The notes beneath the pieces were generated by a model, which did not search any database, was not told where the DNA came from, and saw only the letters and a program-made list of their open reading frames with translations. This document shows positions 50 to 14,216 of a stretch of 19,110 nucleotides of DNA, piece after piece. The DNA is taken from the UHGV virus genome UHGV-0048443; one strand, 5' to 3'. The stretch comes from a virus. Each line of letters opens with the position of its first letter. Position 1 is the first letter of the stretch. The position numbers and the translations under genes were made by a program.

Positions 50-859
50 TTATTCTTCTGAATTATCGATTACACTGTATTCCCCGGTTAATACAGAGGA
101 GTCTGCCGGATCGATTGTCAGTGGTTCCTTTTCATCCATTGATACTGCACGCTGGATTTCAATTGAGACAGGCAGGTATTTAAACAGGCGACGAATAGCC
201 GTTTTTTTTGCCATTTCTTCCCAGTGAGTTACCCATGGCCCGTTATTACCAGCCTTACTCTGGCTGCGCACCAGTTCAATCTGTTTGCGCGTCATAACTT
301 CAAACTGAGTCCCTCCGTCTTTCAGTCTTGCGACAGCATAGACGTGGGTCACTGGTGCATCTTCGTTTTCTCCCGGGCGGTGTATTAACTTTTCATCAAG
401 GCCAAATTCAAAACTAAACTCGTCACCTTCACGGACAACACGGGCTGACAGGCTGGCGATTTGACCAGAACGGCGAGCCAGATCAATCATGCCGCGATAA
501 CCAATGATTAGCTGAACGTTCTTTTTACCGCTCTTTTCGTTTTTATTACCAAAAGGCAGTAAATATGCGTGGCCGAGGGCGCTACCTGGCTCAAGGCCGA
601 GCTGTGAACACTGAACGATCGCACTGACAAAACTCATGGTGTCACAGTTTCCTAGCGCCGGAACCTTACGAATTTCTGTGGTGGCGATACGTATCATTCG
701 TTCAGCCGTCATATGGCGTGGGAGAGCTGCTGCCAGTTGCTCTTTCATTGATGGCTGATTAATAAAGCTGATCACGTCGTTATTTTTTACTGCTGCTGGT
801 GCACGGTTTCCCTGGGTTTTTTGCAGATCGGCTTTTGCGATAGGTGGTTGCTTAGTCAT
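50..859 (-). CDS. recT: RecT single-strand annealing recombinase (Rac prophage type)
   Basis: 269-aa product starting [14 protein letters not shown]..., recognised from memory as E. coli Rac RecT. Start chosen at the internal ATG (859) with GGAG Shine-Dalgarno 6-9 nt upstream, not the ORF-track upstream Met. Overlaps recE stop by 8 nt as in Rac. Confidence 0.9.
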
Positions 860-3527
860 TTGCATACTCCTTAGCCCAGCGGGGCAGTGATAACGTTTTA
901 ATAGCTGGCCATTCATCGGTATTCAGGCAGTCAGCAAGGGTCCTCAGATTGCGGTGATATTCCTGCTGGCCTGCCAGTTTTGCTTCTTCGCCCATCATGA
1001 AAATCTCAACCGGGTAACGTCCGCATTCAACAGTTGTGCTGGCAACCAGAAAAACGAAAGTTGGCAGCACGCCAAACTGTGCTTCATAACCGTCACTGTA
1101 GAATGCATCCTGAACGTGATAGCGGTAGTCGTAATAAGCCGTTTTGAATCGTTGAATATCCGCTGTGGTTTTCACGTCCATGATCCAGTGAAATTCAGGG
1201 ATAATTTTGTCCGGACGGCACCGACACAAAATTCCTGTTTCAGGATCTTCCCAGTAAATTGATGATTCAGCGTGTCCGGCGCTTTCAACAAGCCATTGAC
1301 CCAGCGGCAAAGCCATAACGCTCTGATACATGAGTTCAATTTTCCGGCCTTCTTCGGCAGTGATAACCGTTTTTCCTGTACTTGCGCATTCCATCAGAAA
1401 CGCTTTCTCCTCTTCTTTTCCGGCGGTTGTACGGCGGTTAAATTCAGGTGCCACGATAAAGCGGTTACTGAATTCTTCCGGTTCAAGTACACGGCAGTGG
1501 AAAGCGGTTCCTAAATCGAGCGTTTTTGTCTTTGTGGTGTCCACTGGGGCATTTTTACGCCACAAATACAGAGCCGGAGTATCAGCAATGTCGTCGAGCT
1601 GAGACTTACTGACACCGGGACCCGCGTGGTAATTCTCATTCGAAATTCCGTAATAAATACCAGGCTCTATGTCTCCTGCGATTACGGGATCTGCGACTTC
1701 GCCAGTTTCATCACTGCAATCGCGATGCGGATCGCTGCCAGCATTCTCATTGTGCGGATGTTCAGGGCCTTCCATTTCCTCCGGATCTTTTTCCTGAGAT
1801 TCATCCAGATTTTCTTCATTAAAGGTTTCCTGATACGTGGTGTCGCCCATCACCGCGCCACAATCAGGGCAGTTGCCGCCACCGCTCTGACCGCAGGCGG
1901 CACAGACTTTTTCCGGTTCCTGTTGCGCTACTGGTTCTGATTGTTTCGTTTCTGGCTCGTTTTTCTGTGCATTTGGGCTGTTTTGTTTCGCTTTCTGGTT
2001 GTTTTGTTCCGATTCGGGCTGGCTCTGGTTCACAGAATCGCGGGTTTCAATTCCCTTAACCCATTTCGGATCATTCGGGTCGCTAATCCCTTCAACAAAT
2101 TCTCCGCGAGAGGCAGCCAGCAATTTGTCGGCATCGACAGGATTTTTGGGCGGAATGGTTTTCCGGGCTTCATGGAGTTCTGCCCGCAGTTTCTGATATT
2201 TCGCATCAACAGAATTTACCTGTGACTGAGCATCCAGCGGCTGCGTGTCCTGATGATGTTCAGTTGCATCCGGTTCCACTGTTTCAGCCGTTGCCTGTTT
2301 ATCTGCCATTGCGCAAGATGGTTGCGGTTTTTCTTCACCATCGTGTTTTCCTTCTTCTGTTACACGCTGCGGCATCGGGGCAGAGGAACGACCGCAGGCA
2401 ATATCCACGATTTCCGGATCAGGGGTGGCATGATCGGTTTCAATCAGCACCTTGTTCAGATATTCAGTGACATGCGCAGGGATAACCTCGATCCCAATTG
2501 GTGCTTCTTTTACGGACGCAACCACGATGGCGCGGGAATAATCCAGCCCGCCAGGCATGGTGATGAATTTGTCGCGGAAAACAGAAAAGGGCGGTTTATT
2601 TTCAGCGATAATTTCCTCGACACGTTTAGCGTGTGCCGGATGAAGGTTATAAATGTCCACGTCCATTGAACGAGCCAGTACGCCAGTGGCTACGTCGCGC
2701 GCCAGTGACGTCAGATCGTGAACGAAACCTTCGCCGCGATCGGTGAGGTTCCCGCCGCCAGCATTAGCGCCGGAAGCCGTGCGCGTGATGCGTGAAACAC
2801 GATTTCCTTTCATCCACTCTTTTGTCAGCAGACCACGATCGGTGTAGTCTGCGTCCAGGTATGCTTCGAAAAAAGCAGTCATCAGCCCCAGGCTTGAATT
2901 GCCTGGATTAGGGAAAACTCTGTCAGTATCACGCACCAGTTTGTGGAGATCGCGAATTTCCAGCGGGTCGAGCAGGCTGGTTTTGTGGGAAACAGCCAGG
3001 GCAGTAACAGCTGGTAGTTCTTCAGCTCGTGCAATGTGTAATGCCTGGAGTTCGTCGCGTGAAACGTGCGTTACCGGTTTTTCGCTGCCGTGTTGAGCAA
3101 GCCAGCGAATGGGCAGCTCCTGACCGGAAATCGGGAGTAGCATATTCTCCTCAATCTCCGTCATGTCTTCGCCATTAACATTGGTATTGTCAGTGCTGGC
3201 TGGTTTGTCCTGCGCAGAGGATGAGGGCGCGATAAATACCATTGTGATGCCATCTTCCCCGCCTTTTTCGTAACGGTTGCAGAATTCCGTATCAAATACG
3301 CCCTCTGGTGGAAGGTCATCAACAACGGGCAAATTGACGCGAACAGGTTTTTTAAAGTCATCTTCATCGTAGCCAGCATCGTCAATCGCAACAGCACCAC
3401 GGGATATGGCAATGGATAATTTTTTCGCTTCAGCCCAGTAGAAACCGCCTTTAATACCGAGACGTTTTCTTACTTTGTCATTTTTTGCTTCGTAATACAG
3501 TGGGTAAACTTGTTTATCGGTGCTCAT
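852..3527 (-). CDS. recE: RecE exonuclease VIII (5'-3' dsDNA exonuclease), 891 aa
   Basis: C-terminal ~270 aa ([36 protein letters not shown]...WAKEYAND) matches the RecE nuclease domain from memory. Long acidic/low-complexity middle with a Cys cluster ([16 protein letters not shown]). GAGGT SD upstream of ATG at 3527. Immediately upstream of and overlapping recT. Confidence 0.85.
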
Positions 3528-3977: not shown

Positions 3978-4148
3978 TTAAAGTTCGTGTGCCATCTGGT
4001 CTTTTTCGGCACAGATTTCACTACAATATTTTTTCATTTCCGTCGTTGGTATAACTCCACGCATGAAATGAAGTGGTCTTGTAATGATTTTGCTTTCTTC
4101 AATTTCTTTATTGCAAAGGTGATAAGCACATTTTATTTTCTTAGTCAT
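3978..4148 (-). CDS. ydaE: YdaE-like small zinc-binding protein (56 aa; [18 protein letters not shown]...CSEICAEKDQMAHEL)
   Basis: Hand-translated; below the ORF-track length cutoff. ATG overlaps the kilR stop (TAATG). Cys/His pattern fits a small zinc-binding fold. Position between kilR and racC matches Rac. Confidence 0.6.
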   Translation of the reverse strand: MTKKIKCAYHLCNKEIEESKIITRPLHFMRGVIPTTEMKKYCSEICAEKDQMAHEL

Positions 4149-4369
4149 TACCATGACTCCGCCTTTACAGGTAAACCATCACGACCGAGGAAGACTCTAA
4201 TCATGCAGTCAGAAATGCATGTTTTTGTAGTCAGGCTACGAATATAAAGTTTTCGCTTTTTAATATTGTTTGCCGAGGCGATATATGTCCGACCTTCATG
4301 AAGAACATAATCGCCAGGGGTCACACACTGACGTGGTATTTCATCAGTTCCGAAGTGATGAGCAATCAT
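4148..4369 (-). CDS. kilR: KilR, FtsZ-targeting cell-division inhibitor of Rac (73 aa)
   Basis: Product [45 protein letters not shown]... recognised as KilR; ATG at 4369 preceded by GGAGA. Confidence 0.8.
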
Positions 4370-4780
4370 AATTATCTCCATTTTTACAAATGAATTTTGT
4401 CGATGCGGTGCCTGGTGCCTCCAGGTGACGTTAACCAGTTAACAATTAACGCCGGATAATCCACCCATAACACTGATGCTTTTAACTGTTCCGCGTGCGC
4501 TTAGCCGCATTCACCGCATCACAAAATTCACTTTAAAAAGGGGCGGACATCAGCCGAACTTCAAGAAAAAACTGATGCCGCCAAGACTACACACAGCAAT
4601 GTCGTTATTTACAACCGGAGGCGCACTCCCACCATTTAAATTTAACAGACAAAACCGACTCTTTATGGATATCGGAAATGCGCCTTCGTGTTGCGCCCGG
4701 TTTTATTTCACCACCTCCGGGCTTTGGTGGCCTCGGCTATACCCCTACAGCAAGAATATTGAATTAATCCAATAAATGGT

Positions 4781-4933
4781 TTAGCTGGTATTTTTGGCAA
4801 GCCAGCGACGTGCGCCAGCTTCGGTTTTAAACGATTTGCTTTTGGTATACGTCATGGCGGTGAATGTGCCGTCCTGATTGGGAAACACGGCACATACCAG
4901 AGATTCGTTGTTGCCAAGATCGATAGTATCCAT
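4781..4933 (-). CDS. Small prophage protein, YdaF/YdfA-like (DUF1391-type), 50 aa
   Basis: MDTIDLGNNESLVCAVFPNQDGTFTAMTYTKSKSFKTEAGARRW... resembles small Rac/Qin early-left proteins from memory; ATG at 4933 with GAGG SD. The ORF-track upstream extension is probably not translated. Confidence 0.55.
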   Translation of the reverse strand: MDTIDLGNNESLVCAVFPNQDGTFTAMTYTKSKSFKTEAGARRWLAKNTS

Positions 4934-5140
4934 GTTGACCTCATTTCCCCTTAACGCCGGGTGGCGGAACGTTTTATCTACTGCGCTTTGTATCAATCAA
5001 CAACTGCCGTCATGTTCGTATGCCTCAGGCTGGCTACTTAGCCCTGTTCAGTGGCTGGATAACTCGAGGTATTGTCCTGCCGTTCTCTGGTGGGGCGTTG
5101 TTTGGATATGCTTATTAAACACAATGCGTTTTCTTATGTC

Positions 5141-5155
5141 AACACGAAATGTGTT
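5141..5155. promoter_or_regulatory. Candidate left operator: dyad AACAC-gaaat-GTGTT
   Basis: Perfect 5-bp inverted repeat with 5-bp spacer, same motif as at 5716-5730 on the other side of the repressor gene; partial copy at 5117-5131. Confidence 0.4.
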
Positions 5156-5183
5156 TTGTGGTGGGTGTCATATGATGATGGTA

Positions 5184-5208
5184 CAAAAAAGCCCGCTGAT
5201 AGCGGGCT
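5184..5208 (-). terminator. Rho-independent terminator downstream of the repressor gene (stem gcccgct/agcgggc, then T-run on minus strand)
   Basis: Forward sequence reads aaaaaa-gcccgct-gata-gcgggc; on the minus strand this is a GC stem followed by UUUUUU, about 30 nt after the racR-like stop. Confidence 0.55.
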
Positions 5209-5238
5209 GATTGGCATATTACTGTGATAGCAAGATCA

Positions 5239-5658
5239 TTACTCCGGTGGGGGATTATCTTTAAGCCTGCCTCTCAAATATTTTTCTACATACTCATCGA
5301 TTTCTTTTAGCCGGACTTCAAATAGCTCAATCATTCGTTGTTGTTCTGAGCCCGGTAGCTGGTTAAACAACTCAAGAAGTTTTCGTTGGGATTCATTTAA
5401 CCACAATTCAGAAGATTCCTGTTCTCCAAAGAGGAGCTCAGGAGGAGATATGCCAAGTGCCTTTCCCAATACGACAGCGTCATGCACTCCAACATTTCTG
5501 CTGCCCGCCTCATAGTTACCTATACGCGATTGCGTCCATCCGCAGATTTCAGCAAGTTTTCCTTGAGATAAACCAAGCTTCTGCCTGCGCTCTTTAAGAC
5601 GCATTGCAATTTTGTCATTGAGCCTACTAGCGGCAATTTTTTCGTTTTCTTTTTCCAT
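5239..5658 (-). CDS. racR: Prophage repressor, XRE/cI-type HTH (RacR-like), 139 aa
   Basis: HTH signature QGKLAEICGWTQSRIGNYEAG; divergent from a Cro-like gene; AAGGA SD before ATG at 5658. Assignment as racR is by synteny with Rac plus the HTH, not by exact sequence recall. Confidence 0.75.
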   Translation of the reverse strand: MEKENEKIAASRLNDKIAMRLKERRQKLGLSQGKLAEICGWTQSRIGNYEAGSRNVGVHDAVVLGKALGISPPELLFGEQESSELWLNESQRKLLELFNQLPGSEQQRMIELFEVRLKEIDEYVEKYLRGRLKDNPPPE

Positions 5659-5669
5659 TGCATCCTTGT

Positions 5670-5684
5670 ATCACGAATCGTGAT
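5670..5684. promoter_or_regulatory. Dyad ATCACG-aat-CGTGAT in the divergent promoter region
   Basis: Perfect 6-bp inverted repeat 12 nt upstream of the repressor start codon on the opposite strand; candidate operator. Confidence 0.4.
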
Positions 5685-5705
5685 TTACATAAAACACAAA
5701 ACAGC

Positions 5706-5736
5706 TTGACCATATAACACAAGATGTGTTTAAAAT
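5706..5736 (+). promoter_or_regulatory. Candidate sigma70 promoter for the rightward early operon (TTGACC ... TAAAAT), overlapping the dyad AACAC-aagat-GTGTT (5716-5730)
   Basis: -35-like TTGACC at 5706-5711, -10-like TAAAAT at 5731-5736 (19-bp spacer; TTTAAA at 17 bp). The operator-like dyad sits in the spacer. About 20 nt upstream of the ydaS-like start. Confidence 0.35.
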
Positions 5737-5754
5737 TGTCATCGGAGGTTTTCA

Positions 5755-5997
5755 ATGAACAAAATTTCAACATATCGAAAACAGCTTGGGCTGTCTCAAA
5801 GACAACTTGCTGTTCAGTTAGGGTGGATACAAAGCCGACTGGCAAATTACGAAGCAAATTTTCGTACCCCTGGACTAGAGGAGTGCAGAAAAATTGTTTC
5901 TACCCTTAATCGGCTTGGCGCTCATTGTGGACTTGACGATGTATTCCCCCCAGACGGTAAGCATAGCGAAAACAGCATAGGAGCGGTTGATTCATGA
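5755..5997 (+). CDS. ydaS: Cro/YdaS-like HTH regulator (80 aa)
   Basis: HTH LGLSQRQLAVQLGWIQSRLANYE; GGAGG SD before ATG; divergent from the repressor; stop overlaps the ydaT start (ATGA). Confidence 0.7.
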   Translation: MNKISTYRKQLGLSQRQLAVQLGWIQSRLANYEANFRTPGLEECRKIVSTLNRLGAHCGLDDVFPPDGKHSENSIGAVDS

Positions 5998-6416
5998 AAA
6001 TCAGGCATGAGCACATCGAATCAGTGTTGTTAGCCCTGGCAGCCGAAAAAGGGCAGGCGTGGGTCGCTAACGCAATTACTGAAGAATATCTGCGCCAGGG
6101 GGGCGGCGAATTGCCCCTTGTACCAGGCAAGGACTGGAACAATCAGCAGAATATCTATCACCGTTGGTTGAAAGGTGAAACGAAAGCGCAAAGGGAAAAA
6201 ATTCAGAAACTGATCCCTGCGGTTCTGGCAATTCTTCCGCGCGAGCTGCGTCACCGACTCTGCATCTTCGATACCCTGGAACGCCGTGCATTACTGGCGG
6301 CGCAGGAAGCGTTGAGTACGGCAATTGATGCGCATGATGATGCAGTCCAGGCCGTTTACCGGAAAGCACATTTCAGCGGTGGTGGGTCGCCCGGCGATTC
6401 TGTCGTAGTGCATTGA
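5994..6416 (+). CDS. ydaT: YdaT-like protein (140 aa)
   Basis: Product MKIRHEHIESVLLALAAEKGQAWVANAITEEYLRQGGGELPLVPGKDWNN... recognised from memory as Rac YdaT; translationally coupled to ydaS. Confidence 0.8.
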   Translation: MKIRHEHIESVLLALAAEKGQAWVANAITEEYLRQGGGELPLVPGKDWNNQQNIYHRWLKGETKAQREKIQKLIPAVLAILPRELRHRLCIFDTLERRALLAAQEALSTAIDAHDDAVQAVYRKAHFSGGGSPGDSVVVH

Positions 6417-11579: not shown

Positions 11580-11733
11580 TTTTATATTGGCGAGGTGACG
11601 AGAGTTAAGTAGAATTGCTGCGGGTGCTTGAGGCTATCTGCCTCGGGCATGAACAGCAACGGCAGATAGATAAAAGCCCCAGTTAACATTACGCGTCCTG
11701 CAAGACGCTTAACATTAATCTGAGGCCCAATCT

Positions 11734-11931
11734 ATGCTTCACAAACGTAGGTTAGCCTCTTACGAGCCGAAAGGCAAGGAGAAGCAGGCTATGAAGCAGC
11801 AAAAGGCGATGTTAATCGCCCTGATCGTCATCTGTTTAACCGTCATAGTGACGGCACTGGTAACGAGGAAAGACCTCTGCGAGGTACGAATCCGAACCGG
11901 CCAGACGGAGGTCGCTGTCTTCACAGCTTAA
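11734..11931 (+). CDS. Mok-like reading frame: in-frame N-terminal extension of hok (65 aa)
   Basis: ORF MLHKRRLASYEPKGKEKQA-MKQQK...; layout parallels chromosomal mok/hok pairs as I recall them. Confidence 0.45.
   Translation: MLHKRRLASYEPKGKEKQAMKQQKAMLIALIVICLTVIVTALVTRKDLCEVRIRTGQTEVAVFTA
11791..11931 (+). CDS. hok: Hok-family type I toxin (46 aa), HokD/RelF-like
   Basis: MKQQKAMLIALIVICLTVIVTALVTRKDLCEVRIRTGQTEVAVFTA matches HokD over its length from memory; AAGGAG SD 9 nt upstream of ATG 11791. Confidence 0.8.
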   Translation: MKQQKAMLIALIVICLTVIVTALVTRKDLCEVRIRTGQTEVAVFTA

Positions 11932-13946: not shown

Positions 13947-13972
13947 CTCAATCTGTTATCCGGGGCTATATT
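13943..13972 (+). promoter_or_regulatory. Candidate late promoter (PR'-like): TTGACT - 18 bp - TATATT
   Basis: Near-consensus -35 overlapping the Q stop codon and a -10-like hexamer; lambda PR' has the same -35 hexamer and position relative to Q. Confidence 0.5.
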
Positions 13973-14035
13973 CCTCACGCGCCAGCAAAATCTGGCGTCG
14001 GGATTGGCGTCCTGGATAGAGACCGCGACAGATAC

Positions 14036-14059
14036 ACGCCGCGAGCGTGTTTTTTATTG
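14036..14059 (+). terminator. Candidate tR'-like terminator (cacgc-cgcga-gcgtg + TTTTTTATT)
   Basis: Short GC stem followed by a T-run, about 65 nt downstream of the predicted start site. Confidence 0.4.
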
Positions 14060-14216
14060 TCGTATGCGCGCGCACATCTGAATTATGGTGGGCTGTGTGG
14101 GGGCGGAGAGATCCGCGCCGGTCGGTTTCCCGGTTACGCCAACCCTGCACAGTTCACCACCAGACGATTGGCGTCGTCGGTGGTGAGTTATTAAGAAACC
14201 ACCAGAGGGCGTCATT

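Follow-up and report, generated by a model that had tools for sequence, protein, structure and literature searches.

A putative lambda-type immunity switch with one family of operator-like dyads in a Rac-like Escherichia coli prophage

Genes, promoters and dyads of the cassette

The window analysed here is a stretch of 19,110 nucleotides, a Rac-like E. coli prophage at ttcA. It shares its backbone and attachment site with the Rac prophage of E. coli K-12 (PMC9638921, PMC11879457), and in a blastn comparison of the two the homology ends at position 5097 and restarts at 5988. The interval between (5098–5987) is an immunity cassette non-homologous to K-12 Rac, its limits taking in exactly OL, a terminator, the repressor gene, OR and cro. 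The cassette was matched in 162 of 5426 complete E. coli genomes (in 153 of the 162 over at least 80% of its length), whereas the adjacent ydaT was matched in far more, 1514.

The repressor gene (5239–5658, minus strand) encodes a protein of 139 aa with an N-terminal Cro/C1-type HTH (Pfam HTH_3, 4.7e-13) and a C-terminal two-helix domain. Pfam returned only HTH families, with no Peptidase_S24 autocleavage domain in the protein. In an AF2 monomer model (pLDDT 86.7) helices span residues 89–99 and 103–133. A Foldseek search of this model against the PDB matched the HTH domain alone (C.AhdI, P22 c2, 434, Stl) and yielded nothing informative for the C-terminal domain. Residues 15–133 align to positions 4–131 of the 135 positions of the DicA model (NCBIfam NF007257), including the LF-QLP-SEQ motif of the C-terminal region that is conserved across the repressor's family; the score of 57.2 bits (E 1.4e-15) lies well under the family cut-off of 101 bits. 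Judged by that curated cut-off the repressor falls outside the DicA family, to which it is related and whose architecture it shares. Matches to the LexA box CTGT-N8-ACAG (at most one mismatch) occurred in the window at chance level and none lay near the switch. The HTH is 58% identical to the N-terminal domain of mEp213 CI over 72 aa (E 2e-25) and 49% identical to the HTH of VT1-Sakai CI.

Divergent from the repressor gene lies a cro-type gene (5755–5997, plus strand) for a protein of 80 aa (HTH_3, 6.7e-10) with the recognition helix GW-IQSRLANYE. An earlier sequence-only reading had called this protein YdaS-like; that label was positional only, as the protein has no YdaS-family match in Pfam and is 55% identical to mEp213 Cro over 69 aa (E 1e-28). 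The HTHs of Cro and repressor share 45% identity, and both carry the recognition helix GW-xQSR-x-x-NYE. The following gene is ydaT (5994–6416, plus strand), coding for a CII-like regulator (Pfam YdaT_toxin PF06254, 43.3 bits against a cut-off of 21 bits; PHROG 163, CII-like activator, 1.5e-36) with relatives of solved structure (8bt1, 3c4r). At the junction with the upstream gene we found a YdaT box at 5987–6004, TTGATT-CATGAA-AATCAG (TTGATTCATGAAAATCAG), with one mismatch to TTGATT-N6-AATCAA and with the start ATG of ydaT inside its spacer. Boxes of the same position and type have been footprinted in Rac of K-12 (ATGATTCATGAAAATCAA, PMC11879457) and in CP-933P (PMC9986795). A candidate box in the repressor-cro intergenic region was rejected: it is a three-mismatch match only (5680–5697), and the window holds 16 of these against 13.8 expected.

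The 96-bp intergenic region between repressor and cro contains three operator-like positions, starting at 5670, 5693 and 5716. The AACAC-N5-GTGTT dyad reported earlier for the divergent promoter region is perfect (OR1, 5716–5730, AACAC-AAGAT-GTGTT, AACACAAGATGTGTT). The repressor-proximal site (OR3, 5670–5684, ATCACGAATCGTGAT), described before as ATCACG-aat-CGTGAT, is in fact a perfect 7-1-7 palindrome; read as ATCAC-GAATC-GTGAT its centre lies at about -19 from the repressor ATG. Between them is a half-site overlooked in that reading (OR2, 5693–5707, AACAC-AAAAC-AGCTT), which makes the three positions exactly 23 bp apart. The degenerate arm of OR2 overlaps the -35 element TTGACC (5706–5711) of a putative rightward promoter, PR (5706–5736, plus strand), predicted to serve cro, ydaT and the replication genes. 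OR1 does lie between TTGACC and TAAAAT, as had been claimed, but that spacer is 19 bp and non-canonical. Two -10 elements come into question: TTTAAA (5729–5734), with a spacer of 17 bp but no A at -11, and TAAAAT (5731–5736), with the 19-bp spacer, so the assignment is ambiguous. The repressor's own putative promoter, PRM, has the extended -10 TGaTACAAG (5665–5673, minus strand) 6 nt upstream of the repressor ATG, which implies a leaderless or near-leaderless mRNA. An SD-like AAGGA just upstream of this ATG counts against an exclusively leaderless mRNA. Both the -10 (TACAAG) and the -35 (TTTATG) of PRM are weak.

On the other side of the repressor gene, the AACAC-N5-GTGTT dyad noted earlier at 5141–5155 is likewise a perfect 5-N5-5 dyad (OL1, AACAC-GAAAT-GTGTT, AACACGAAATGTGTT). 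OL1 ends 83 nt past the repressor stop codon (5239–5241), beyond an intrinsic terminator of the repressor transcript (5180–5208 on the minus strand, stem 5190–5208) with an 8-bp stem, six G-C pairs and a following T-run. A partial copy had been reported at 5117–5131; it exists, but one base to the right, at 5118–5132 (OL2, AACAC-AATGC-GTTTT, AACACAATGCGTTTT, one mismatch). Its start lies 23 bp from that of OL1, a spacing missed in the earlier reading, as was a minus-strand consensus TTGACA (5142–5137) that overlaps OL1 by 2 bp. With a 17-bp spacer and the -10 TTTAAT (5119–5114) this hexamer would form a leftward promoter, PL (5114–5142, minus strand), with the half-dyad OL2 in its spacer/-10 region. 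PL would drive the side of DUF1391, kilR and recE. Neither PL nor PR was picked up by a consensus promoter scanner, owing to its rules on the spacer and on A at position 2; for PL the cause was a -10 lacking that A. Promoters were re-scored by a purpose-made weight-matrix scan, with which -10 assignments stay ambiguous; PL was the top-scoring minus-strand candidate in 5060–5240. One 23-bp step past OL2 (5095–5109) we found no third OL site in the window. Rfam gave no RNA family within the switch, either at gathering thresholds over the whole window or in an E-value scan of 4700–6100, and a weak Trp_leader match was merely the repressor terminator. The PL leader was considered as a structured RNA and dropped: RNAalifold gave two short hairpins with one compensatory pair only, which is insufficient.

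Frequency and conservation of the sites

The dyads are non-random. AWCAC-N5-GTGWT has three exact matches in the window against 0.06 expected, a number reached in none of 200 shuffles, and all three sit in the two non-coding stretches flanking the repressor gene. With at most one mismatch allowed, AACAC-N5-GTGTT likewise has three matches (0.65 expected; 4 of 200 shuffles reach three). Counted over the whole window, CAC-N5-GTG by itself shows no enrichment (5 copies; 3.96 expected), so that the signal rests on clustering, identity of the flanks and conservation. The 23-bp phasing is regular at both OR (5670, 5693, 5716) and OL (5118, 5141).

A set of 80 viral contigs gave us 35 unique variants of OR and 53 of OL. 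Across them the arms are invariant while the central 3–4 nt and the linkers vary. This applies to OR1, with centres such as ATCTT, ACCTT, ACATT and AATTT, to OL1, and to OR3, in which ATCACG/CGTGAT is invariant and the central two bases change. Invariance extends to the half-sites, namely to the OR2 element AAAACACAAAACAG and to the AACAC arm of OL2, and in the PL region of relatives to GTGTTGACA and GTGTTTAAT.

We also compared eight lineages at 57–84% repressor identity, from Salmonella, Citrobacter, Enterobacter, Serratia, Klebsiella, Pectobacterium and Yersinia. All eight keep the synteny. CAC-N5-GTG occurs 24 times in the 2,480 nt of their OR and OL segments and 7 times in 36,618 nt of other sequence (Poisson P ~1e-32). 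Cognate sites recur at these positions in about ten related lineages, phages mEp213 and VT1-Sakai among them; absence of the dyads from related immunity regions was looked for, and every related lambdoid lineage examined had them. A cognate full dyad abuts TTGAC at OL in all related lineages compared, and an equivalent of OL2 is present as well; Citrobacter and mEp213 do have a third OL site one 23-bp step beyond it. Equivalents of OR3 begin at ATG-26 or ATG-27 in seven lineages. The conserved half of OR2 in relatives is again the one nearer OR3, and in mEp213 the position is taken by a full dyad. Conserved in relatives are also the PR layout (-35, 3–4 nt, 15-bp operator, A/T-rich hexamer), which the GenBank record of VT1-Sakai labels 'putative major rightward promotor', and the PRM register (operator arm GTGnT, then A, then 6–7 nt to the ATG).

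Where the DNA-binding domain changes, the sites change with it. In the repressor as in Cro, the residues that open the recognition helix (TQ/AQ/SQ, TA, SG-A/S) vary together with positions 1–2 of the operator arm (AA, GA, TT/CT). In a Phytobacter relative the C-terminal domain is retained, the HTH is another one and the dyads are of the form TTAAG-N7-CTTAA. In K-12 Rac, RacR-type TAGGC-N3-GCCTA dyads occupy the equivalent OL position. A second, heteroimmune repressor, which we call type B, has the helix SGSSR and arms TTCAC or CTCAC. The identical Cro is naturally paired with this repressor/operator type and with that of the window, in E. coli (10 genomes) as well as in Salmonella. In one recombinant locus cro is frameshifted.

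Relation to described switches

Our literature survey on this operator, the mEp213 operators and RacR/YdaS/DicA returned no mapping for this immunity type, and the paradigms it yielded were only those of CP-933P, Rac K-12 and DicA. The lambda switch is resembled in several respects: repressor and cro genes are divergent and about 96 bp apart, three OR positions follow each other at 23–24-bp centre spacing (relative to the repressor start, the middle one at about -42 and the proximal one at about -19), operators of the same family reappear by a leftward promoter downstream of the repressor gene, and a CII-type regulator gene follows cro. With one palindrome family on both flanks of the repressor gene, as in lambda, the locus is an ordinary member of a well-known kind of switch. 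In contrast to lambda the operator has 15 bp (5-N5-5) instead of 17 bp, OR2 and OL2 are half-sites with just two OL sites recognisable, and OL and OR are about 575 bp apart instead of 2.3 kb. The repressor has a short helical C-terminal domain in place of the S24 autocleavage domain, the role of CII is filled by the unrelated YdaT, and we saw neither an N gene nor a nut-type match.

The closest relation in operators is to mEp213 and VT1-Sakai (GenBank PV340538, AP000400), functional phages with a homologous HTH and the same CAC-N5-GTG core with A/T-rich outer arms in the same -35/operator/-10 register. Both have three-site OR and OL arrays in which AACAC and ATCAC arms are mixed; AP000400 already annotates three sites of this core as putative operators. 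The operators of mEp213 (AACACATATTGTGAT, AACACAAATCGTGTA, ACCACGGAATGTGAT) include three full dyads at both OR and OL, unlike here. The two phages differ further in being N/cII/O-type lambdoid genomes, the prophage studied here being of the YdaT/Rac type, and their CI proteins carry a C-terminal Peptidase_S24 domain (88.6 and 91.8 bits) and are presumably RecA-inducible. One and the same DNA-binding module is joined to a cleavable S24 domain in some cases and to a short DicA-like one in others, which bears on which prophages are SOS-inducible. DicA of the Qin prophage (PMC3441716) is, like the present repressor, small, without S24 and encoded divergently from a small regulator, there DicC; the DicA operator Oc differs (TTGTTAGTCATAACTAACAA, PMC3441716).

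The gene order has its published paradigm in PaaR2/YdaS/YdaT of CP-933P from E. coli O157:H7, for which OR, OL, PL and a leaderless repressor mRNA have been described (PMC8630535). There, too, a repressor gene, a divergent gene for a small HTH protein and ydaT follow one another, OR lies in an intergenic region of about 97 bp, OL/PL follow downstream of the operon of the repressor, the sites footprinted by the two regulators overlap, and a YdaT box is found at the ydaS/ydaT junction (PMC8630535, PMC9986795). The differences are that its operators are 18-bp palindromes with the consensus half GTTTAGTAA, that the PaaR2 operon includes the toxin-antitoxin pair paaA2-parE2, whereas the repressor gene here is monocistronic and followed by a terminator, and that the place of YdaS is taken here by a small HTH protein outside the YdaS family, a Cro of mEp213 type.

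K-12 Rac has the same YdaT (93% DNA identity), an identically placed YdaT box that covers the start codon of ydaT, and cognate dyads at OR and at the equivalent OL position. Its RacR of 158 aa has operators of the form (T/A)TAGGC-N3-GCCTA(T/A), and its YdaS belongs to another family. No blastn homology was found between 5098–5987 and racR-ydaS of K-12. On the Rac/YdaT-type backbone, immunity cassettes are exchanged as entire blocks whose precise limits are OL and the YdaT box. The present immunity type is a previously uncharacterised member of a well-known class of switch, found in about 3% of complete E. coli genomes, with carriers among O157:H7, O145:H28, O55:H7 and APEC lineages and relatives across Enterobacterales. 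The general understanding of how such switches work is unchanged by the present findings; they provide a concrete, testable operator map for genes at present annotated just as 'helix-turn-helix' proteins.

A probable single operator family and a model of the switch

The sequence-only reading had proposed a lambda-style immunity architecture, and with the same operator family on both sides of the repressor gene, at the divergent promoters and by the leftward promoter, we agree. It had further read the two kinds of dyad as two families suggestive of two DNA-binding proteins, and here we came to a different view. OR3 shares the 5-N5-5 geometry and the CAC-N5-GTG core of the AACAC sites and keeps exactly to the 23-bp phasing of OR2 and OR1. 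In mEp213 and VT1-Sakai, single operators combine AACAC with ATCAC arms, and one site of mEp213 pairs AACAC with GTGAT. In relatives the OR3 position shows arms AACAC..GTGGT (as in Citrobacter and Serratia, an arm of the main family), GCCAC..GTGGT or TTCAC..GTGAT. The recognition helices of repressor and Cro are nearly identical, so competition of the two proteins for one family of sites, as in lambda, is most likely, judged from the protein and DNA sequences. All sites would belong to one family with the consensus A-(A/T)-CAC-N5-GTG-(T/A)-T.

It is unlikely, then, that ATCACG-AAT-CGTGAT is a separate operator for a second protein, Cro-like or YdaT, with the AACAC dyads reserved for the repressor. 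Such an arrangement would fit the difference of OR3 from OR1 and OL1 at position 2 of both arms and its longer 7-1-7 palindrome, both invariant in 35 of 35 OR variants, as well as the outer-arm difference between OR3 and OR1, mostly at position 2, in nearly every lineage. The identical Cro also occurs with type B operators, whose arms are all xTCAC, and may therefore favour T at position 2. Besides the shared geometry and helices, the place of YdaT argues against it: the footprinted box type lies at 5987–6004 and not at OR3 (PMC9986795, PMC11879457), and OR3-type sites persist in phages with CII in place of YdaT. Within a single family the difference at arm position 2 may set different affinities for repressor and Cro, and the pairing of the same Cro with a second repressor/operator type hints at how the order of binding is set. 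A tentative extension, which we rate as possible but doubtful, makes position 2 (A/T) the base by which the switch discriminates: A is what the TQSR helix of the repressor would read, while OR3 has T in both arms, the base found throughout the operators of the type B repressor. If so, OR3 would by design be a weak site for its own repressor, one promiscuous Cro would serve two immunity types, and OR3 might bind the type B repressor of a co-resident prophage, allowing cross-talk between heteroimmune Rac-like elements.

We think it likely that this region serves a Rac-like lambdoid prophage as its immunity switch, with one operator family and lambda-type logic. According to this model a dimer of the 139-aa repressor would bind the 15-bp dyads through its Cro/C1-type HTH. 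At OR it would find OR1 in the PR spacer, OR2 touching the PR -35 and OR3 abutting its own promoter; at OL it would find OL1 over the -35 of PL, taken to be a strong promoter, and OL2 in the PL spacer. With OR1, OR2, OL1 and OL2 filled, cro, ydaT and replication to the right and DUF1391, kilR and recET to the left would be switched off. From OR2, at about -42 from the repressor start, the repressor could plausibly activate the weak, extended -10, leaderless PRM, and occupancy of OR3 at about -19 would shut PRM off. The 80-aa Cro would compete for the same sites, and YdaT, as the analogue of CII, would act at its own box. That OR2 and OL2 are only half-dyads counts against a lambda-type reading, as do the ambiguous -10 of PR, the weak hexamers of PRM and a repressor with no S24 domain in a window with no LexA box. 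In K-12 Rac, moreover, YdaS reportedly fails to repress racR (PMC9638921), and analogy by itself is no ground for expecting Cro-like behaviour.

A rival account would be that the half-sites OR2 and OL2 are non-functional and that the repressor acts alone, in the manner of DicA, in a defective prophage, simply repressing the two flanking promoters with no cooperative pairs, PRM activation or bistable competition with Cro. The repressor is indeed small, lacks S24 and has DicA as its nearest named family (below cut-off); only one of three predicted DicA operators was bound in vivo (PMC3441716); YdaS reportedly did not repress racR in K-12 Rac (PMC9638921); and Rac-like prophages are often defective, and the recombinant locus mentioned above has its cro frameshifted. 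We nevertheless consider this account very improbable, since none of the variants departs from the conserved halves of OR2 and OL2, the 23–24-bp phasing of these sites is kept in lineages otherwise diverged in sequence, mEp213, a functional phage, has a full dyad at the place of OR2, and the homologous module of CP-933P showed multi-site footprints, OL/PL and bistability (PMC8630535).

Candidate operator sites and promoters around the repressor gene

The window is a Rac-like lambdoid prophage. It matches E. coli strain P4 at 100% identity and an O157:H7 strain at 99.4%; in the latter it adjoins ttcA, and intR, xisR, recT and recE are located upstream. On the minus strand it carries recE (852-3527), a kilR-like ORF (4148-4381), a DUF1391 gene (4781-4996) and the gene of a 139-aa HTH_3 repressor (5239-5658). 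The plus strand encodes an 80-aa HTH_3 protein of Cro type (5755-5997) and ydaT (5994-6416), with replication genes to the right. Parts of the immunity/ydaT region are also found at 96% DNA identity in PP818812.1 (Actinobacillus phage vB_Apl-pPE4, 6346-7743), an odd match given the stated host Actinobacillus pleuropneumoniae; the host may have been mis-assigned, or the record may be that of an E. coli prophage. In the late region (11622-11796 and 13966-14164) Rfam matches at gathering threshold were obtained for sok antitoxin RNA (hok/sok module), the Hfq-binding RNA isrK, and C4 antisense RNA with its a1/b1 targets.

The dyad AACAC-N5-GTGTT is present at 5141-5155 (OL1, AACACGAAATGTGTT) and at 5716-5730 (OR1, AACACAAGATGTGTT), and the dyad which the sequence-only reading had set apart as a second type is present at 5670-5684 (OR3, ATCACGAATCGTGAT). 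The partial copy noted earlier was found with one mismatch at 5118-5132 (OL2), one base to the right of its former placement at 5117-5131. The start positions of OR3, OR2 (a half-site, 5693-5707) and OR1 follow in exact 23-bp steps (5670, 5693, 5716), and those of OL2 and OL1 (5118, 5141) are also 23 bp apart. AWCAC-N5-GTGWT occurs three times in the window against 0.06 expected, a number reached in 0 of 200 shuffles, and all three sites are located in two non-coding stretches on either side of the repressor gene. Taken alone, CAC-N5-GTG shows no enrichment window-wide (5 versus 3.96), and the signal therefore consists of clustering and flank identity.

OR1 indeed lies between TTGACC (5706-5711) and TAAAAT (5731-5736), the best -10 match of PR (5706-5736), the two hexamers being 19 bp apart. 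The predicted PL, the top promoter candidate in our own scan, consists on the minus strand of a consensus TTGACA (5142-5137) overlapping OL1, a 17-bp spacer containing OL2, and TTTAAT (5119-5114); a stock promoter scanner, which requires A at position 2, did not report it. The predicted PR and PL share a layout of -35, 4 nt, 15-bp operator and A/T-rich hexamer. The 17-bp alternatives TTTAAA (PR) and TTTAAT (PL) are without the A at -11, which is usually essential, and the same ambiguity recurs in the promoters of relatives. Between the repressor gene and OL lies an intrinsic terminator (stem 5190-5208), so that OL is part of a leftward unit of its own, comparable to lambda PL.

Downstream of PL, between the promoter and the DUF1391 gene, we noticed a conserved non-coding leader (4997-5105, minus strand). 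It is common to heteroimmune relatives from E. coli to Pectobacterium (loci L002, L005, L006, L088, L094, L072 and K-12 Rac, L087) and contains the motifs AAGTAGCC..GGCATACGAA..ATGAC and GCGCAGCAG..GTTCCGCCnnCCnGGCG..AAGG. RNAalifold predicted no more than two short hairpins and a single compensatory pair, and the Rfam search gave nothing for the leader. It could have a regulatory role in the early-left operon, for instance as a nut/put-like element.

A probable single operator family in close and distant relatives

We compared 80 viral contigs whose repressor is 84-100% identical. They gave 35 unique OR sequences, all with unaltered AACAC/GTGTT and ATCACG/CGTGAT arms and an unaltered OR2 half AAAACACAAAAC; variation falls on the dyad centres (2-4 nt) and on the linkers between sites. 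The 53 unique OL sequences showed the same pattern. More distant repressor homologues (57-66% identity) came from Citrobacter, Enterobacter, Serratia, Klebsiella, Pectobacterium and Yersinia. All have a divergent HTH_3 gene opposite the repressor, most have YdaT next, replication genes come after these, and exonuclease VIII is found downstream. NNCAC-N5-GTGNN is present in all of these lineages except Yersinia, which has degenerate versions only; its copies lie within the PR spacer, a short way before the repressor ATG, and beside TTGAC past the repressor terminator. In eight lineages 24 core matches fall within 2,480 nt of OR/OL against 7 in 36,618 nt elsewhere in the loci; the rest-of-locus rate predicts 0.47 (Poisson P ~1e-32). 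With the same site family at OR and at OL beside a leftward promoter, conserved in relatives, the proposed lambda-style immunity architecture is supported.

The further proposal, that two dyad families serve two proteins, is unsupported as stated. ATCAC-GAATC-GTGAT has the same 5-N5-5 geometry and the same CAC/GTG core as AACAC-N5-GTGTT, differing solely at arm position 2; a repeat finder aligned the two at 75% identity and added a third family member, CATAAAACACAA, at 5688-5699. At the OR3 position Citrobacter and Serratia have AACAC..GTGGT, Enterobacter and Pectobacterium have GCCAC..GTGGT, and Klebsiella has TTCAC..GTGAT; judged by these sequences, the site is always the local family with changed outer bases. 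The functional phage mEp213, whose S24-type CI has an HTH 58% identical to that of our repressor and whose Cro is 55% identical to the 80-aa protein, has the OR sites AACACATATTGTGAT, AACACAAATCGTGTA and ACCACGGAATGTGAT and three more such sites in OL, mixing AACAC and ATCAC arms inside single operators. VT1-Sakai is similar, and its GenBank record annotates ACACACAATTTGTGATT, AACCTCAATTCGTGTAC and AATCACGTTGCGTGTTA as putative operators.

YdaT had been offered as a possible second protein. Its published box is of the type TTGATT-N6-AATCAA in CP-933P (PMC9986795); the Rac box is ATGATTCATGAAAATCAA, its spacer including the ydaT ATG (PMC11879457). The window's own predicted box, TTGATTCATGAAAATCAG at 5987-6004, covers the start codon of ydaT, and phages with CII in place of YdaT still have OR3-type sites. 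The 5670 dyad is therefore not attributed to YdaT. An extra AATCAG half-site is located at 6020-6025, 16 nt downstream of the box. Overall, the region is an uncharacterised new case of a well known switch type.

Proposed repressor transcription and operator recognition

On the repressor side of OR, the OR3 arm GTGnT is followed by A in every lineage, and the repressor ATG lies 6-7 nt past the resulting hexamer. This PRM-position hexamer is TACAAG in the window and TAAAAG, TAAAAA, TAAAAT, TAGAAT, TAAAGT, TATAAA or TACATT elsewhere; in seven of the eight lineages the OR3 start falls at ATG-26 or ATG-27. For mEp213 and VT1-Sakai the register requires cI to begin at another in-frame ATG than the annotated one. 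The TG of the OR3 arm would make an extended -10 (TGnTA) for PRM, and the spacing suggests a leaderless repressor mRNA. OR3 and OR2 would then be centred near -19 and -42, the geometry of lambda PRM. Lambda cI is a precedent for a leaderless transcript. Another is paaR2 (PMC8630535). The repressor ATG is preceded by an SD-like AAGGA, which may instead be used by longer transcripts starting at a YdaT-dependent promoter further upstream. An antisense -10 TATGCT (5979-5974) is a weak candidate for that promoter, which could be PRE-like.

The HTHs of repressor and Cro are 45% identical over 42 aa, with recognition helices GW-TQSRIGNYEAG and GW-IQSRLANYEAN, and both proteins are likely to recognise one shared set of sites. 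Neither SR..NYE nor CAC/GTG varies between lineages, and the initial helix residues co-vary with arm positions 1-2 (TQ/AQ/SQ with AACAC, ATA with GACAC, SG(A/S) with TTCAC or CTCAC). Phytobacter sp. V91 (L006, ~2380-2500) has a repressor with the same C-terminal domain (LLNLYRQLPESERQKMIDTFELRLKEIDEYVEKYL), an unrelated HTH, flanking TTAAG-N7-CTTAA dyads, and no CAC-N5-GTG, which shows domain shuffling between DNA-binding and C-terminal modules.

The AF2 model of the repressor (pLDDT 86.7) consists of a five-helix HTH and helices 89-99 and 103-133; Foldseek matched only the HTH (C.AhdI, P22 c2, 434). The nearest named family is DicA (57 bits versus a 101-bit cut-off), whose operator is unrelated to those described here (PMC3441716). 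The repressor has no S24 domain and no LexA box was found in the window, therefore induction is not by RecA autocleavage. Over residues 1-69 the Cro-type protein aligns with PDB entry 28tn (E 8e-15), a 'lambda repressor-like protein' of 82 residues; a solved structure of a close relative thus exists.

Exchange of the immunity cassette

Homology to K-12 Rac ends at 5097 and restarts at 5988. The non-homologous block 5098-5987 comprises exactly OL2, OL1, terminator, repressor gene, OR3, OR2, OR1 and cro, and its right edge is the YdaT box. The cassette was matched in 162 of 5426 complete E. coli genomes (153 over at least 80% of its length), versus 1514 for the adjacent ydaT. In K-12 Rac itself (L087, 2452-2492) the place corresponding to our OL is taken by an element resembling OL/PL, with RacR-type dyads ATAGGTAATGCCTAA and ATAGGCTATGCCTAA flanking TTGACA downstream of racR. 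These dyads fit the published racR-ydaS intergenic consensus (PMC9638921); the RacR literature searched describes operators only in that intergenic region.

An identical Cro is paired with a 'type B' repressor (64% identity to the window's, helix SGSSRIANYE) in 10 of the 5426 E. coli genomes and in a Salmonella contig. Such loci include L098 (E. coli PEC178, 1130-2043), L099 (E. coli CM2010-0578/1, with cro frameshifted) and L100 (Salmonella). Homology to the window begins at the cro ATG, and these loci are natural recombinants. Their operators are TTCAC..GTGAG, CTCAC..GTGAG and TTCAC..GTGAT, and since the identical Cro occurs with them, Cro seems to tolerate A or T at arm position 2. The distinctness claimed for OR3 thus survives as a differentiation within one family: the site has the type-B-like T at position 2 of both arms, and may be a poor target for the cognate repressor and a good one for Cro.
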